Assembly (NCBI RefSeq): GCF_048593235.1
Contig: NC_133619.1
Location: 417,721,644-417,785,643 of the forward strand
Reading direction: 5' to 3'
DNA length: 64,000 nucleotides
Source of the DNA: Sminthopsis crassicaudata
Taxonomy: Eukaryota
In this document: positions 13,138-58,959 of the stretch, piece by piece
Position numbering within the stretch: position 1 is the stretch's first letter
Layout of the letters: each line of letters opens with the position of its first letter
Notes under the pieces: generated by a model
What the model saw: only the letters and a program-made list of their open reading frames with translations
Told to the model about the DNA's origin: nothing
Databases searched by the model: none
Program-made: the position numbers and the translations under genes

Positions 13138-14989
13138 TTTCTGAAAAGTTTCTCTTTGAAATTCCTAGAATTAGAAACAAACAAACAACCACCACCACAA
13201 AAGTGAGATAGTTCAGCATTGTCAGAAATCTGGGCTTCATAAGAAATAAATTTGAAATCTATTATGCAAGTAATCATTCCATTTTTATAAAATTACTTTT
13301 TAATGATAAATTATCATTTGAGAAATTTTCAGTGAAACAAGTATAAGGGATAGCACAAACATGTAATTAATAGTAATTAAAGGCAGTGTGACAAAGTGGA
13401 AAAAAGGATCCAGGACTCAAAACTAGGAAAGCCTGGGTTCAAGTACTCTCTCTGGCACATTCCATCTGTGTGATCTTGAGCAAGCAACTTAACTTCTTGA
13501 TGCTCTAGGAAACCCTTTAAGATTATAAATCACAGAAAAAATTATAACCTATAAGGGAATTTCTTCCCTTCTCATTATATTTTTGTGGGACTAGATTCAA
13601 TATCACAGGACCCCAATGAGGGAGAAAAAGTGAATGAAAACCAAAGAGGATAAGCTATCATTTAAATAATTTCTCAGAACACAGAGGATGCCCTAATTCA
13701 AAACGACTTGAAAAGTTTAAATATATAATACTTTGTACTACTATTTTATAGGAGAGATGAATTTATGTGTAATGCCTACCATGCTGATATTCTTCAGTGT
13801 AGATGGTTGACAACAAACATTACTTAGACTCTTTCACTCAAAGCAGAAACCCAATAACTTCTAAGTGCCTTTAATCAATACTTTAGTGGTTTAGGTGAAA
13901 TATTTGAAGGTGACGTCATTCAGTTGTACTTTTAATGTAGTCTTTGAAAAAAGTCTTTTCTGTGCAAGAGATCAGCATTTTGAAAATACAATTAGGAATC
14001 TATCCCTTTTGCCATTTCTTCATGGTGAAATCATCTCTTTTTTATAAATGTGAAAACTGTTTTGGACATACTGTAATACTTGTTCCCTGAAGTACCTAAA
14101 TAGTTTATAAAATTGATATCAACTTTAATTTCTGTTTATGTTCATAAGTTGTGATGTACATCCATTTAATGGGAAAGGTGAATATAGTTCAGTAGGTATA
14201 GGACCATGCTGCCTGAATATCTATTTAATACTTATTTATAGTAATTTTACAATGAAGGTATTTGAGATTAGCCAGCACAGATAATATTTCTATTCTAAAT
14301 ATTTTATTCTACTATACCTATTTTTTGTGACCTCATTACTTGTAGACTAAAAAGCTAAATGTATAAAAAAAAAAAGTCTTAGATTCAGTATTTATCCTGT
14401 AAATAGTAATATCCTTAGCTGTAATAGCTTTATACTTTCTATAAATGTAAAAACATACATTCAAAGGTAGAAATAATTTTAGGAATGAAATTCATTCTTT
14501 GGCTTGCCTTGTTACACTGTCATATATGATATGCCTTGTTACATAGTCATACATTCAGTTTATTTTTATTTTTGCATTTTAATTGGAAAACAAGTTCAAT
14601 TTTCATTTTCATACAACAAATGTGTCAGGAAACATCTTACTTCTTGGAGTAGTATGTGTCTGGCATAGTTACAATAAAACTACTTTTAAATCTCATACCT
14701 ATCAGATTGGCTAAAATGATAAAAAGGGGAAAATGACAAATGCTGGAGGGGATCTGGAAAAATAATACACTGTTTATAGAATTTTATTGATCTAACCATT
14801 TCAGAGAGTAATTTCAAAGGACTTATTAACCTTCCCTTTTACATAAAGGGAAATAGTCTTCCCAGTCTCTCAGGCTCAAAACCTGGGAATCATCCTGATT
14901 TCCTCACTATCTCTCACCCCTTCCCCCCCCCCCAACTGACTAGGGAAGTACCGGAAACTAAAACTCCTTCAAGGAGAAAGTCTCTGGCT

Positions 14990-23705: not shown

Positions 23706-24254
23706 GAAAAAAGAAAGGAAAGGAAAGCATTTCCAAATAAAACAATTCAAAAAATACAAAGGCATAAAAACGTTAGGTATATTAAAAAAAGCTTCATATA
23801 TTATCCTGACTTACATTTTAATTATGCTGTTGTTTTTAATTTCATGTTAAAATATTAGGGAAAAACATCTGTTCCAAAATAAGCTAATAAATGAATTAAG
23901 TCATCATTTAATAAATATTTATCATCTGTCCAGTACTGGAAATGAGAAAAAGGAACAACCTGTCCTCTATTTGTTTGCCTTAACAAAATTAATGATTTAG
24001 TTAATAATCATAAATTAATGATAAAGTATTTCCTTTACAAAAACTCTCCAAAGATATTTATATTTTATGATGGAAACATCAGAATTTTTCCATTACACAA
24101 ATTAGCTATCATTTTCTGATACCAAATAAAATCAACCAAAGGTTTATGTAAGTTATTTCTCTAATAATTTGATAATACAATTATCTGCTCCATTTATTAA
24201 ACTTATCTATAGTAAGACTAAGAAATTATTACAATTTAAGAATCTATACCATAC

Positions 24255-25721
24255 CTTTGCAGAACTTTGGTATGGTTTCATTTCATCTTCTTTCATAGCA
24301 TAGCCAATGCCTCTAGAAGCAAACCAAACTGCACAACCAATGCTGTCATCCAAAACTGTATTCAAGGGTTGAACTAATTGGCTTATACGATGTTGTCTCA
24401 TTCTCTGTAATTCTTCCAGGGAAACATTAATTTCAACAAAATTCCAAATTCTTAAAGGATTTAAATTTTTCAATTCTTTTAGTCCTGCTCTGCCAGTAAC
24501 TCGGTCTGGCACATTAATATTTTGGTCTTGAATATTGTCAATTGTGGTAGCAGATCTTTTATTGTTTTCCTCAGAAGGTGTTTCAACATGTTTTTTTGCC
24601 TTATCACTATTTTTGGTGAAAGTAGTATGCCCAGGCTGTTCTTCAGTCATGAAAGCTACATTAAGAAGATCGATGGGTTCATCAAAAGGAACATGTCGAT
24701 CAGCAAGGCTTGCAATAACCATGGAATCAATACCACCAGAAAAAAGTACTGCAATATTTGCCTTCTTAGCAGAGGCCTTAGAAAGGTTATCATTTAGGAA
24801 TAGACCTTCAGTTCTCGATAAACATAAAACTCGTCTCTTTACTGCTTCACTTAAGACATTAATTAAATGATGAACTGTTTTTTTCATGTGCTCATCTTTA
24901 AGAAAAACCTGAAGATTTTCTATAGTTGCTGTGACATGAGATCTATGAGCAGGTTCAAATGAATCTTGTGGTGGTAAATTTGTATTTAATGGAGTAACAG
25001 GTGTCTCAAGAAAAAGTCTGGCGTCATTTATCTCAATAGATACAAATTTTGGCAAATCATCTGAAATCTGATTAAGACTCTTGTCAACATTCTCTATTGT
25101 ATCATCTTTAGAAATGTATTTCCAAGGATACAATTTTAAAACCACACGTTTGGAAATGGCAGAGGATTTGAGATCAATTCTGAAAATTCCACATGCTGGA
25201 ACTTCCTGCCACTTGTTTTCTATTCCAACATCTTGAGCACCCACTGAAGCAAGGCAGAAACCCTCTCCTGTATTACTAAAATGCCAAAGTAAGCTACGAC
25301 GACCAAAATAATCCCTACCAAACCACACACAATGACTAGATATCTGGTAATAAATAAAAGCCCATGGACCACGGATGCTTGAAAAAAGTGATATAATTTC
25401 AGATTCATTATTAAATGAAGAAAGATGATTAAACATAATTTGAGTATCATTCTCTTCAGCTCCTACATTTATCCCACTAAAGACTTCTCCATTCCAAAGG
25501 AATACATTGCCTCTTCCATCTTCAATAGGCTGGGGAGTCAAAAGACCTCTTAAGTGAAGGACATGACCAGAAAATAAACAATGATAATCATTATCAGTCT
25601 TTAACACCTGATGACTACTGTTGGGTCCTCGTCGCTTGAGATTCTGGAGTAAATTCTTGTGTAAAAATTCATACCCACCATGTTCAATAGATAAAGTGAC
25701 TGAACAACAAATACCACACAT
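24255..25721 (-). CDS. ASNSD1: ASNSD1 first coding segment (exon 4), asparagine synthetase domain-containing protein 1; total CDS 634 aa
   Basis: MCGIC start (Ntn-amidotransferase Cys2), [16 protein letters not shown]-loop SGGIDS; donor AAG|GTATGG at 24254; 489 codons. With exons 5 and 6 this gives 634 aa. Confidence 0.97.
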
Positions 25722-25740
25722 TTTGTGTAATTTAGCAAAC

Positions 25741-25811
25741 TTATTTCTTGATTTTGTTTTTTTCTGTATTTTCGACTTCCTGGTGGATTTTTTTCAACTC
25801 ATCTAATGTGT
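25741..25811 (-). CDS. ASDURF: ASDURF coding exon 4 (5' part of ASNSD1 exon 4), contains stop
   Basis: Acceptor cccccacAG at 25812-25813; phase-1 join gives [26 protein letters not shown] at 25741-25743, 19 nt before the ASNSD1 ATG. Confidence 0.92.
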
Positions 25812-53532: not shown

Positions 53533-55309
53533 AAAATATAGAAATGAGAGGTGGAGTGCTGTGTAGAAGAAATAGAAAGAAGGCGAGTTTGTCTGGATTT
53601 TAGTATAGGAATAGAGGTAGAGTAATGTACCATGAGGTTGGAAAGATAGGATGAAGTCAGGCTTAGATTTAAAAGCTAAACAGAGGAATATATATTTTAT
53701 CCTAGAGACATTGAATTTTACTGGGTAATGATGTGGTCATATCTGTGTTTAAGTCACTTTGGCAGTAGTACATTGGATGAATTGGAATGGGAAGGGCCTT
53801 GAAACAGGGATAATAATTAGAAGATTGTTGTAGTAATCTAGGTGAGATATGATAAAGGCTTAGAACTAAGGTAGCTATGTGTGTAGAGAAAAGGTCAAAT
53901 GTGAGAGATGTTGTGATAACTAATTAAATATGTGAAAGAGAATGAAGAGTCAAGGTATTGCAAAGATTATGAATGTGAGAGACTGGAAGAATGATACGGA
54001 ATCCACTTTTGACATGAAGAAAAGTTTGGAAAAGAGGTGGGTTAGGTAGATGGAAGCAAATGAATTTTCTTTTGAACATGTTAAGTTTCAGATTTCTTTA
54101 AGATACCTAAGTTGAAAATTACAATAGGAGACTGATGCTTAAGGATTAAAACTCAGGAGAGTGGACCTGGCTATATGAGCCATTAAATACAAGAGAACTA
54201 CTGGAGTCACCAGAAGAGAGAGTAGAGAGAAAAAAATAGGGATGCTAGGATAAATTCTTGGGAAAAACTACAAGTTAGTGGATGAAATGCATAATAAAAT
54301 GGCAAAAGAGACTAAGACAGGAAAGACAGGCAGGTAGGAGAAGAAGCAAAAGAGCAGTATCATTAAAGCCCTGAGACAAAGACTATCTAGAAGAAGCTGT
54401 GCAATAATTTCAGATTCAGCAGGTGCACATAAAAGATGATTGAGAAAAGGTAAATTAAATTTAGCAATTAAAAAATTACTGGTAAATTTAGAGAAATCAG
54501 ATGAGGGTTATGGTCAGAGACCAGACTACAGAAAATCAAGGAATAATGAGAGGTGAGGAAATAGAGGCAGTGGATATAAAGAGGCTTTTCTAGGATAGGA
54601 CAATAGTTTGAGGGGTTAATGGTATCAGTGAACGATTTTTAAGTATAGGAGGTGATTAATGCACATTTGAAGTCTGTAGAAAGGAACCAGAAGAGAGGCT
54701 GAATATTGGAGAAAGCAATATAGTTGAGGTTGAGTTTAGTAAGAAAAGGTGGAAGAAAATGGGATAAAGGGAACATGTAAAAGGGTTTACCTTGGAAAGA
54801 AGGGCTACCTCATTTTGACAGACTGAGAGAAAGGATGAGAAGGGGATAATGTCAAGTAGTTTTAAGATGAAGTACTGTGGGGTCAAGGATTAGAGGTCTT
54901 GGTGAAAATGAAAAACTTTACCTCAGCCAAACATGTAAAGAATGGGTTATATTATTTAAGTTTTATTGAGTAGTTGGGAAGATAAAGAGTTGTGTGAACA
55001 TTGCCATAGATGTTGAAAACCACCAGTATAAGTACAGGAGTTGGAAAGGAAAATAAAATATTGAACCAGGTATTGAACTATTGAGAAAGGAAGAATGACC
55101 TGGGGAGAATATTCATTATACAAAATCAAAATCTTGATTAGGTGGAAAATTTTGGTAATGTAAACTTCAAAAGGTTAGAGGTTACTGATGATGATAGTTA
55201 AGGAAAAGTCTGGAAAAGAAAGTGAGGATAAAAATAGTATGAGTGCCCCTTCAAGATCAGTTTGTCAGGGTAGATAAACTAGCCCAGCACTGAGGATGGC
55301 TAAGCTAAG

Positions 55310-55610
55310 TGTAAAGGGCTAGAATTGAGCAATGCACTTGGATAATGAAGCATGTGAGACTAATTGCCAATTGGACGGTTCCCTATTAACTTGTTTGAAA
55401 GTTGACCCTCCCCAGCTGTTCTGTGCTGACCTGATTGGTGGGACAAAGAGGGGGAAGTGACTTGTGTGGGAGGAGTAAGAAAAACTTGGGTGGTGGAACT
55501 CACGTGCACTTGCACTCGTGACCTGGCATTGGAGGCGACGGTAAAGATCTAGAATAAAGACATTTAGTGATCCTGACTCCTGCTGATTTCTGGAAGATAG
55601 AGTTCCAGCA
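55310..55610 (+). mobile_element. LTR A (301 bp) of the composite element
   Basis: TGTAAAGGGC...CCAGCA; AATAAA at 55553-55558; followed by tt and a PBS. Confidence 0.9.
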
Positions 55611-55612
55611 TT

Positions 55613-55630
55613 TGGCGCCCAACATGGGGC
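55613..55630 (+). other. Primer-binding site, tRNA-Lys1,2 type
   Basis: TGGCGCCCAACATGGGGC is 17/18 to the canonical Lys1,2 PBS TGGCGCCCAACGTGGGGC; the mismatch is a CpG-type transition. Confidence 0.92.
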
Positions 55631-55636
55631 GCCATT

Positions 55637-56206
55637 TGTAATGTGCTCTCCTGGCAGTTACAATTACTAGTCTGCCCTAGACCCACCAGAGTACCTTTGA
55701 CCACTGTACTTTGCAGTGTGAACTCTACCCAGCTCGCCTCCTCTGAGGCCTTCAAAGGTCTCTGGCCACAATCTCTTGAATCTATAGCTTAATAACCGGT
55801 AGCGCACTCAAGAACAGCCATGTGTAATCTTAAAAGCCTTTATTATATGTACTCACATAATGCCCTGACTGATGCCCTGACTTGTTGGTTCCCTAGTGAA
55901 CACCTGGTCAGAAGACCCACATGTTCACTACCAAAATCCTTACCTCTTTTGGCTATCTATCTTGGCTTGGCCACCCAGGCTAGGAAGCCAGGGTGAAGAA
56001 CGCCAGGTTAAAGAGGGCGACCGCTGCCTGCAGTGGGCTTATATAGGGCCTGTGAGATCACACACACATCAGCGAGAGAGTCACCCATTACGAAGCTATC
56101 TCAAAATGGATAGGATCCCACCTACAAGGCAGTCCTAATATCCATAGAAATTACTTCCGGGCCTCAATGATGCGCTGTGGCGCAGCCCATTTAAAGGGCC
56201 CTTACA
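55637..56206 (-). mobile_element. LTR B (570 bp) of the composite element
   Basis: Minus strand TGTAAGGGCCC...CATTACA; TATATAA at 56039-56045; AATAAA at 55839-55844; followed on minus by aa-TGGCGCCC. Confidence 0.9.
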
Positions 56207-58959
56207 GCTAAGTCTCAGTAAAGGCTAGCAGATTGAAAGTTTGTGAAATCAAGAATTCCAGGATGAAGGGAAGATAGTTCACTATGGGAAACACGAATTT
56301 CAGAAGAAACAGTGGAAGGGATGGATAGGTTTGGAGTAAATCATGGTTAGATTAGGATTGAGGAGAATGATGATAAAAGAACACGAGGTGGAGGGGGTTG
56401 ATGATAAATTTCTGATTTTTGGCTGGTGACTTATTAGTATAGGAAGTAGAAAAGAAACAGAAAATTGATAGCCATAAGAGGAAAATGGGGGGCAGATGAG
56501 AAAGTAAAAGGAAGATAATGAACACTCCGTCCTGAAGTTTGTTACAGAAAAGAAAAACTAGTCATAACCTGACATATAATATTTCTGCCAGAGTAAACAG
56601 ACAAGGATCCACAAAATAGAAACATTGTATGCCAGAACAAATATTTACATTTTTGTGTTTCTTTTTTCTCAAGAAACCTTTAAATATAACATAGTAGTTA
56701 GTGCTCCCCCCCCCAAAGGTGGTCTAATTATAATTATGTCAGTTCTATCTTGCTATCAATAGTATAATTTTAAAACGTTAATTTCAATTCCCCTCTAGGG
56801 AAACAATGTATATTTTCCCACACAGTCATACTAATTTTTCTGGCTTTAGGAAGCAACAAGCCTGAAAAAAATATCCAAAACATCATACTGTAAACAGGTA
56901 GTTCAGTTCAGGGCACAGTTGTTTGCTAGTGGGTTTTGTTGTTTTATTTTTATAAGTTTTGCTATGCTGTTGTTATGAGCTTATTATCTCTATTAAAATA
57001 TCATGATCATAGATATGTGCATGCATCTTCCAATGATTTAAGAGGGAGGAAGTTACATATGGGAGAGTGAGAATTAAGCTCTGAGTAAAGGCTCACAGTC
57101 AATCATCATTGTTTACTAAACACCTAGAAATTAAATTTATGTCATAACTACTAATATTCAAAAAGTTGTGTTTTTATTCAGGTAAAAGTATTTTTTGTTT
57201 GCTCTTTTTGTTTGTTTTTATTGAGAAGCTAACAGCATTAAGTAAAATAGTTAGCACAGAAATTTAAGCATAGAAAGCAATAGCTCTGTTTTATATTGTT
57301 TACCACATATGTATTCACGATACCAGCTGATTCTAATCTTCTGAGTACTTTTTGTTTGGCTAATGTCATGTAAATACTTTACCATTTGATTTTTAATACA
57401 AATTTTAATTTACTACATTTTTATTAGGAATGTGTAACAGTGGAAATTTTAGCTTTCATATGCCCCAAGACATTTTATTCCCTTTTATTTCATGAGTAAT
57501 TTTTAAATAAATGTTTGTTGTCGTAGAGGAAAAAAATACCTTTAAGAATTTTCTGAAACTAGAAATATAAATATGATGCAAAAGTGATAGGATATAGTGA
57601 TGATAACTCATAAATATGGAGGTCAAGGACTGATAGTATAGAAAAGAAACCTTCAAATTCTAGACATATATGAATGAATCCTTACTTCTTACTGAATACT
57701 GTAGGAATCTTGGAAAAGGGAAGGAGAAGAGAGAGGAAGAGAGGAAGTAATCTTTTTTGTGAATGTTACTGAGGAGGAACTTGTTGTCTAAGTGGGAACT
57801 CTATTCAGGTAAAAGTATGCTATTTTCATGATAATGTTTGTGTTTGTGTTGTAGGTTCTATGTACATTTAAAACAAGGCCTGACTACCAGTTTGTCATGC
57901 TAGACTGGTAACTGATTATCAGAGTTGTGACTTGGAATTCTGATACTAGGAATAAATTTAGTTTAGCAGGAAGGTAGGGAATGGGGAGTGAGACCACACT
58001 TTTTATGGCTGGTGTGCAATGCCTTATTACTTTCATATACTTATTCATAGAAAGTTCTTTCTTTGTTCTTTGGTAAAGAAAATAAATGCATTAAATTAAC
58101 TCTTTGTGTGAACAGGAACAAGCAAGAATCACTGACCTTAAAGGCAAACATTTGGCTTATCTAAATCTTTCTCACTTTTGTTTTTTTTTTTTTTTTATAT
58201 AGAGTAGAGAAGGTCAAGGTTCAGAACTGTTATCTTCTAAGTGGCAGATTTGTGTTCTACTTCTATCCTGTCTTGCCAACTTTTCCCCTTTTCGGTAGTC
58301 CATGTTCCTAAGATTTTCACAAATAAATGTATAAATATAGTAGTCTTTCAAATAACAAAAAAGGACCAATTACTATGAAAACATATAGGAAAACAATGAA
58401 GAAGGTAATGTTATCTAGATTTTTGACACTAGATAATTCATTTAACCCTGTCTGATATATATGTAAAATGCGAATAATTATAGATCCTTCCTCCCAGATT
58501 ACTGTAAAAGTATAATTAGACAATGCATTTAACTTTCTAATATTATAAATATTAATTGATATAATTTACATACAGGTGTAGATCCTTAAATTTTTTTTAA
58601 TGTATGTGAAGATATCCTAAGACTTCTCTAGAGTTTTATGACCCTTTGGAGTGCTGCAGTGATACCTTTATGCTATGAACTTCATCCTTCATTTTCAATA
58701 CTTTTGATAACATAATCACACATGACATGTGACATACTATATATATGATGTATGATATAATTAGTTACATAAAAGCTGGAATTATAAGCAGAAATCATTG
58801 CATTGTTGCCTTAGAGCTGAAACAATTTTATCACAAATCCTAAGACCACTTCTGTGGAGCTGACCTTCACACTCCAAGTCAGTATATTATATTATACATT
58901 AGCAGCTTGCTAATGTAACCAATTATTCTTGATAACCTGATGCTAATGTTAGTATTCAT

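Follow-up and report, generated by a model that had tools for sequence, protein, structure and literature searches.

How can two unrelated long terminal repeats (LTRs) of endogenous retroviruses (ERVs) come to face each other across one primer-binding site (PBS) and be inserted in the host DNA as a single unit? This question is raised by a locus of Sminthopsis crassicaudata, lying in a stretch of 64,000 nucleotides (contig NC_133619.1, positions 417,721,644 to 417,785,643 of the forward strand) that is called here the window and whose coordinates are used throughout. Between two copies of GCTAAG, a unit of 897 bp consists of LTR A (301 bp, plus strand), TT, a 22-nt double PBS, TT, and LTR B (570 bp, minus strand). 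The fusion is best explained as a misdirected second strand transfer, that is, a variant of aberrant second-strand transfer: probably, two plus-strand strong-stop DNAs annealed via their copies of tRNA-Lys1,2, were extended, and were integrated as one duplex. The observations behind this reading are the anatomy of the unit with its one outer target-site duplication (TSD), the recovery of both parent families, a pairing register of 12 in 14 positions leading to a joint of 22 nt, a joint that comes in two mirror forms at a ratio near 1:1, and many separate origins. The features of the locus are the following:

55304..55309, plus strand: left TSD, GCTAAG (from the sequence)
55310..55610, plus strand: LTR A, 301 bp, TG..CA, with AATAAA at 55553-55558 (from the sequence and proviruses)
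55611..55612, plus strand: TT spacer between A's U5 end and the PBS, the same as in 72 non-fused A+PBS sites
55613..55630, plus strand: 18-nt tRNA-Lys1,2-type PBS on A's side, TGGCGCCCAACATGGGGC, with one CpG-type change (from the sequence)
55617..55630, no strand: 14-nt stretch over which two copies of the PBS can pair in antiparallel orientation, at 12 of its positions (from the register test)
55627..55634, minus strand: initial 8 nt of the PBS in the orientation of B, TGGCGCCC (from the sequence)
55613..55634: the whole 22-nt joint, or double PBS (from the sequence)
55635..55636, minus strand: AA spacer between B's U5 end and the PBS, the same as in 16 non-fused B+PBS sites
55637..56206, minus strand: LTR B, 570 bp, TG..CA, with TATATA at 56040-56045 and AATAAA at 55839-55844 (from the sequence)
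56207..56212, plus strand: right TSD, GCTAAG (from the sequence)

The succession of TSD, LTR A, tt, PBS, GCCA, tt, LTR B and TSD had been read from the letters of the window in an earlier note, and its coordinates, its TG..CA ends, its length and the perfect 6-bp TSD around the whole unit (55304-55309 and 56207-56212) are all confirmed. The GCCA (55631-55634) represents 4 nt copied past A's PBS, which we take to be of the tRNA-Lys1,2 type and whose CpG-type change sits at base 12, relative to the form in most copies. As that note had it, the two LTRs are unlike each other (no significant blastn similarity, best E 0.87) and each has its own poly(A) signal (AATAAA at 55553 in A and at 55839-55844 in B). 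However, the poly(A) sites are not 27 bp apart, as had been stated: the U5 ends are separated by 26 bp and the poly(A) signals by about 286 bp. Neither LTR had a blastn match in the rest of the window, and no TATAWA was found in LTR A. The TG...CA ends flanked directly by a perfect 6-bp TSD are those of an LTR insertion made by an integrase; two LTR families, a PBS inside and U3 at both ends set the unit apart from a solo LTR. It contains neither a polypurine tract (PPT) nor internal sequence.

The unit is one of many in this genome, which was searched as 3.24 Gb in 8 contigs. In a DNA search, all 40 of the 8,984 candidates that were scored, the window included, were near full-length, the others matching at 91-95%, so that the search for further copies suggested in the earlier note returned many of them, with different TSDs. 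Among 30 units found by BLAST, a perfect 6-bp TSD lies directly on the unit in 14 and a 5-bp TSD in one more; in 20 wider regions, an outer TSD with at least 5 of 6 positions matching was seen in 16, with 4 lacking a resolved TSD, and these outer TSDs mostly bound larger mosaics (e.g., A-PBS-B'-internal-A). A TSD of its own was present in 18 of the 36 full-length units examined. By pattern count, the exact 22-nt joint occurs 78 times genome-wide, and 74 A-B junctions are base-exact in both ends and both spacers. A CpG-tolerant pattern gave 191 joints (186 pure and 5 mixed C/G, with no mixed A/T), a pattern that can yield false positives and hence not a clean count, because the only viral-contig match (L312) was rejected as a fusion, being an ordinary LTR-PBS-leader in which the leader begins ACCA. 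Reversed-pattern controls gave 0 for every count. Set against 3,271 U5 ends of A and 2,842 of B, these joint counts put fusions at roughly 2-3% of A/B copies, bearing in mind that the three patterns differ in strictness and that the one for A also catches A-like subfamilies. For closer study, 123 distinct junction loci were assembled, comprising all those listed for contigs C1 and C2, part of those for C3-C6, and the BLAST finds.

Since the same joint is found at 74 places and half of the full-length units carry their own TSD, misassembly of the unit is unlikely. At the locus itself, contigs of two DNA samples from two studies cover each outer border up to 28-29 letters into the unit, an overlap just under the 31-letter bridging rule, and one of the samples may be the source sample; among contigs of 4 runs none joins across the unit, which says nothing on the absence of an empty allele. 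The left host-site flank matches three compared loci at 60-70%, and the right flank matches none of them.

The joint has a fixed register. Two copies of the PBS of L126 and L134, overlapping by their 3' 14 nt, form pairs at 12 of the 14 positions; the next-best of the registers compared (4-18) has 8 pairs, and the 14-nt overlap predicts a joint of 22 nt, which is the length observed. In the 74 exact joints, the junction coincides with the last base of the 18-nt tRNA copy, as in an aberrant second-strand transfer. The annealing of GGGC on GCCC, as first proposed, is therefore correct in its register and too short in its extent, which is 14 nt with 12 pairs rather than 4 nt. With two positions left unpaired, the joint is expected to exist in two mirror forms. 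Of the exact joints, 39 are of the A form (full PBS on A's side), 32 of the B form and 3 mixed C/G, with no mixed A/T; the ratio of 39:32 is compatible with 1:1 (p=0.48). This even split fits the segregation of an integrated heteroduplex, and a mismatched PBS in integrated DNA of human and simian immunodeficiency viruses (HIV, SIV) and murine leukaemia virus (MLV) likewise gives two proviral forms at about 50:50 (PMC4549124). The extension of A's strong-stop DNA across B, also claimed at first, is supported, with the addition that the B side was most likely B's own plus-strand strong-stop DNA, because in 32 of the 74 junctions it is B's side that has the full PBS. The 30 BLAST-found loci are unbiased for the joint, and in 28 of them the first 8 PBS bases are perfect on both sides, CpG decay aside; one of the remaining two is off by one base, and the other was missed by the script pattern and is the same by eye.

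Solo copies with their own TSD are abundant for both A and B (12 of 30 sampled for B), and this would favour an insertion of B into A's PBS, or a joining of viral ends by the host, with later deletion. However, the unit has one outer TSD and none inside, the joint is base-identical at 74 places with both native spacers kept, and end joining gives variable joints, usually U5-to-U3 (PMC7197481), making this the least probable of the explanations considered here.

The PBS can also fold into a hairpin (-3.6 kcal/mol), so that one strong-stop DNA might fold back and prime itself, GGGC on its own GCCC, before switching to the LTR of the other family. Such fold-back could account for a class of insertions consisting of LTR A, TT, the 22-nt double PBS and a TSD (L041, L148, L151, L170, L190 and L227), of which five are among the 123 junction loci and L227 came from an unbiased U5 search. 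Contrary to this explanation, GCCA is directly followed by the spacer of the partner (TT, which is B's AA) and not by that of the primer, the A-A palindromes that it predicts were not found, and it can yield neither the mixed forms nor L148, a B-form member of the class; it is disfavoured, with a very small chance of being right. In this class, the GCCA end of the double PBS is used as the second integration end, as could be explained by a partner strand starting at the U5/PBS border.

Another question is whether the unit arose many times or arose once and spread. Trees were built from 35 fused halves (L006 being omitted as a duplicate), to which ordinary LTRs, namely those with a perfect PBS, were added, 19 for A or 12 for B; support values are low. 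The fused halves are interleaved with ordinary proviral LTRs in both trees, and one fused A half does not differ at any base from an ordinary proviral LTR. In approximately unbiased (AU) tests, a single clade of fused halves was rejected for A (p-AU 7.7e-5) and for B (p-AU 2.1e-7), as was a single clade of the A halves of 18 stand-alone units (p-AU 0.0024), and the joint forms are not clades either (p-AU 1.3e-7). Mosaic copies each have a different breakpoint. Because the halves interleave with ordinary LTRs and the breakpoints all differ, the unit was formed repeatedly rather than amplified, so that neither of the outcomes first envisaged, a one-off accident or an amplified composite, applies.

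The alternative is that one or a few fusions gave a composite that then spread as a mobile unit, either as a long LTR or as an integrase substrate resembling a miniature inverted-repeat transposable element (MITE). In its favour, the near full-length copies, which number at least 40 and match at 91-95%, have different TSDs, the ends show a short inverted similarity, and the test of the A-half clade becomes borderline without CpG columns. Contrary to what it would require, no provirus with the composite at both ends was seen in the 56 A-B loci, the unit has no PPT, the same joint links unrelated families, and mosaic breakpoints are never shared; the interleaving of the halves and the scatter of the joint forms in the trees point the same way. 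The sole duplicate pair (L005/L006) stems from one fused unit copied by segmental duplication; its members are separated by about 1.05 Mb on C3 and have flanks 98% identical and the same TSD. Spread of a composite is thus largely refuted and has a slim chance. The possibility that both halves belong to one long LTR consensus, raised in the earlier note, is likewise not borne out by the 56 A-B loci (flanks of 1.5-4.8 kb, which very long elements could escape). The inverted unrelated LTRs, the lack of a PPT and the rejection of a single clade (borderline for A once CpG columns are removed) also distinguish the unit from elements resembling terminal-repeat retrotransposons in miniature (TRIMs).

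Repeated formation from ordinary elements is the reading followed from here on, and both parents are present in the genome: as had been supposed, A and B are distinct ERV families, with their own TT or AA spacers and Lys1,2-type PBS in non-fused copies (72 sites for A and 16 for B in the perfect-PBS form). Of 8 A-type regions read, three (L122, L126 and L127) are proviruses of 6.6-6.9 kb with gag, pro and pol, the rest being deleted or rearranged. No frame of at least 150 aa lies between pol and the 3' LTR in these three, leaving A without env. The predicted proteins of A match Gag_p10, Gag_p24, RVP, RVT_1, RNase_H and rve in Pfam, with 7sr6 (E 2.7e-153), 7usf and 3jca as best PDB matches, presumably a HERV-K reverse transcriptase (RT) in the first case and mouse mammary tumour virus (MMTV) integrase in the other two. 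These similarities place A, as judged from its sequence, among the class II (beta-like) ERVs. It is not assigned to betaretroviruses proper, as neither env nor a dUTPase was found, no dUTPase family matching the pro frame of L126 at E<=0.01. In 12 B-type regions there are five clean elements of about 3.8-3.9 kb (L130, L132, L134, L136 and L139), composed of LTR, PBS, internal region, PPT, LTR and TSD and devoid of pol, as in a non-autonomous partner. B is likely mobilised by the proteins of A. Two recombinants, L140 (in which a B LTR is joined to an A leader) and L137, speak for the co-packaging of A and B in shared particles. Many copies of B also retain a single open frame, of 346-367 codons (L134:876-1973), for which there was no Pfam or PDB match. 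Reverse-transcription accidents of the two families were seen at L131, L165, L140, L125 and L137, with inverted internal regions among them; those of B include a B-B dimer with a cut arm and its own TSD, and B fused to a B deletion variant.

In most ordinary A/B proviruses, the PBS is a variant differing from the tRNA copy (L208, L221, L237, L241, L245 and L250). In the first 115 Mb of C1, variant forms number 14 for A and 9 for B, against one perfect form of each, as counted with patterns of different strictness. Such an excess is far from the expected 50:50 reversion, and a variant PBS may weaken the normal second transfer and favour plus-plus pairing.

With both parents at hand, the following sequence of events can be proposed. 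RNAs of A and B would be packaged together in particles made by A. After removal of the tRNA, each strong-stop DNA would be left with an 18-nt 3' overhang, and these overhangs would anneal plus-to-plus, with two A.G mismatches, in place of plus-to-minus. RT would then extend both ends by displacement into a blunt duplex with U3 at each end, which the integrase would trim and insert. The integration of the product as one U3-to-U3 duplex, part of the claim first made for this locus, is supported. Replication would subsequently part the mismatched strands into an A form or a B form, with repair seldom mixing them. Onward jumps of the growing strand to a minus strand would generate the larger TSD-flanked mosaics.

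The mosaics help to discriminate between this pairing of two DNAs and a priming of DNA on RNA, in which the plus-strand strong-stop DNA of one element would replace the tRNA on the RNA PBS of the other in the same register, U5-R would be copied, and, after a jump, the plus strand of the partner would copy back through. Priming on RNA yields the same 22-nt joint and both pure forms, which would tell which element was the primer, and it accounts for six mosaics that continue into the PPT and internal sequence (L056 and L058 on the A side; L054, L065, L172 and L178 on the B side). However, it predicts the A form alone where B's PPT was copied, and L065 and L172 are of the B form, L058 being the mirror case. 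It also predicts no mixed joints, of which 5 were seen, and its product would end in a long overhang instead of a blunt U3, whereas half of the full units (18 of 36) are flush with their TSD. The variant PBS of most ordinary A/B copies would, moreover, pair less well. Further evidence comes from inner joints at which a full U3 end is joined to other viral DNA, where two PPT-side bases are retained in 8 of 12 (GA for A, AT for B; chance 1/16 each, p about 1e-7). For A, these bases are retained in L046, L048, L053 and L060 and absent from L049 and L074; for B, they are retained in L050, L059, L192 and L195 and absent from L055 and L064. Retained, untrimmed PPT-side bases point to run-off of RT at the 5' end of a plus-strand DNA template, contrary to priming on RNA, even though some of them may be microhomology. 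Priming on RNA is therefore considered unlikely.

Several points weigh against the annealing of two strong-stop DNAs. The evidence consists of genomic fossils alone, with no intermediate observed. The self-duplex of the PBS has only about half the stability of the normal pair (-15.0 vs -29.1 kcal/mol), a level also reached by 802 of 5000 shuffles. The model predicts A-A and B-B junctions, of which there are none genome-wide and one among the 123 loci, respectively; the absence of A-A might, at a guess that is unproven, be due to perfect palindromes being lost in vivo or during assembly, and fused pairs of 81-88% identity do exist. The mixed joints, 5 C/G and 0 A/T, form a weak bias (p=0.0625), which would fit the removal of A from A.G mispairs. 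For the six mosaics that run into the PPT, either the template must have been RNA or a plus strand must have started upstream. As for the trees, with CpG columns removed a clade of A halves is borderline (p-AU 0.051) and one of B halves is still rejected (p-AU 7.4e-6), both by quick trees, and gene conversion could be another source of LTR mixing.

The fusion is not restricted to A and B: 37 of the 123 junction loci join other LTR families to each other. The remainder comprise 56 A-B, 11 A-like/B-like, 10 A-other, 3 B-like/other, 3 A-like/other, 2 A-like/B and 1 B-B. Nine of the 37 pairs from other families have TGT..ACA ends and a perfect 6-bp TSD, as found by an automatic search that can err. 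Outside this genome, the 22-nt joint was found in metagenome contigs at 46 loci (L266-L311) in 31 distinct contexts unrelated to A/B; 20 contexts have LTR-like ends (CA and a 1-4-nt spacer) on both sides, and 12 have similar inverted arms (91% over 488 nt in L287). Six loci of about 70% GC are not LTR-like (L266, L284, L285, L288, L303 and L304), and no whole TSD-bounded unit within 800 bases and no pol similarity were detected at the metagenome loci. The joints there probably belong to LTR elements of other eukaryotes, a suggestive reading. We lean towards a general side-pathway, in unrelated organisms too, by which any LTR element primed by Lys1,2 can pair with any co-packaged element using the same primer. 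If so, a few percent of insertions would come from it, in the form of integrase-competent head-to-head LTR dimers, stubs of an LTR plus 22 nt, and inverted mosaics, and its fossils would be a genome-wide record of families sharing particles.

No description of LTRs joined head to head by a PBS was found in the literature, of which older or closed parts, as well as Repbase or Dfam entries, could hold one. A review of normal second strand transfer and PBS stem-loops lacks the words homoduplex and self-complementary in its main text (PMC6088434). In the transfer described there, the partner is the minus-strand PBS, whereas here it would be another plus-strand PBS copy, and the product is a pair of facing LTRs with two U3 ends and no internal region. 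The PBS heteroduplex of HIV, SIV and MLV also resolves into two forms at about 50:50, but one of its strands is a tRNA copy and the other an RNA copy (PMC4549124), whereas here both would be tRNA copies in opposite directions. The template-switch insertions of cereals described by Sabot and Schulman in 2007 (PMC1950507) resemble the present units in that two parents are fused and inserted as one element; those elements share an LTR, whereas here unrelated LTRs are inverted around a PBS joint fixed to the base. Autointegration and one- or two-LTR circles also involve rearranged LTR DNA with inversions, made within the particle, but their joints lie at variable integrase or end-joining sites (PMC7197481), in contrast to the invariant joint with both spacers kept. 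The pair formed by A and B is reminiscent of MusD/ETn (PMC7472051), with an env-less autonomous member (A, with gag, pro and pol) and a non-autonomous one (B, without pol), and in A and B, as in ETn, MusD and IAP, the commonest PBS deviates from the tRNA. Unlike in that pair, the LTRs of A and B are unrelated to each other. MEBrv 3 is an env-less ERV of dasyurids (PMC11334065) whose representative, compared by lengths alone, has 7.3 kb and a 469-bp LTR vs 6.6-6.9 kb and 301 bp in A; the part of that article drawn on makes no mention of PBS or head-to-head LTRs.

The unit is likely a dead end, because it has no PPT and no internal sequence. Its meaning lies rather in adding to textbook reverse transcription a defined error pathway, predictable from the primer tRNA sequence alone, and in indicating that integrase accepts a U3/U3 duplex, as well as the GCCA end of a primer copy, in the germline. 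Fused pairs reveal autonomous and non-autonomous ERVs packaged together despite dissimilar LTRs, something otherwise hard to learn from a genome, and the two joint forms offer a natural tally of heteroduplex segregation vs repair. In repeat annotation, such a unit would be broken up into two solo LTRs, or a false consensus of a long LTR would result. In each unit, moreover, two predicted promoters point towards each other, as do two poly(A) signals.

Elsewhere in the window, a lone pol segment (6435-8680, minus strand) is 92% identical to family A and holds an open frame of 801 codons, with no LTR belonging to it in the window. A host exon at 24207-25793 (minus strand) belongs to a gene with an asparagine-synthetase domain (weak matches to Pfam GATase_7 and Asn_synthase), which we take to be ASNSD1, and another at 12484-13164 (minus strand), without a Pfam match, to a neighbouring gene, presumably ANKAR. 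From the 5' side of the asparagine-synthetase-domain gene outwards, the distance to the A-PBS-B unit is about 25-30 kb.

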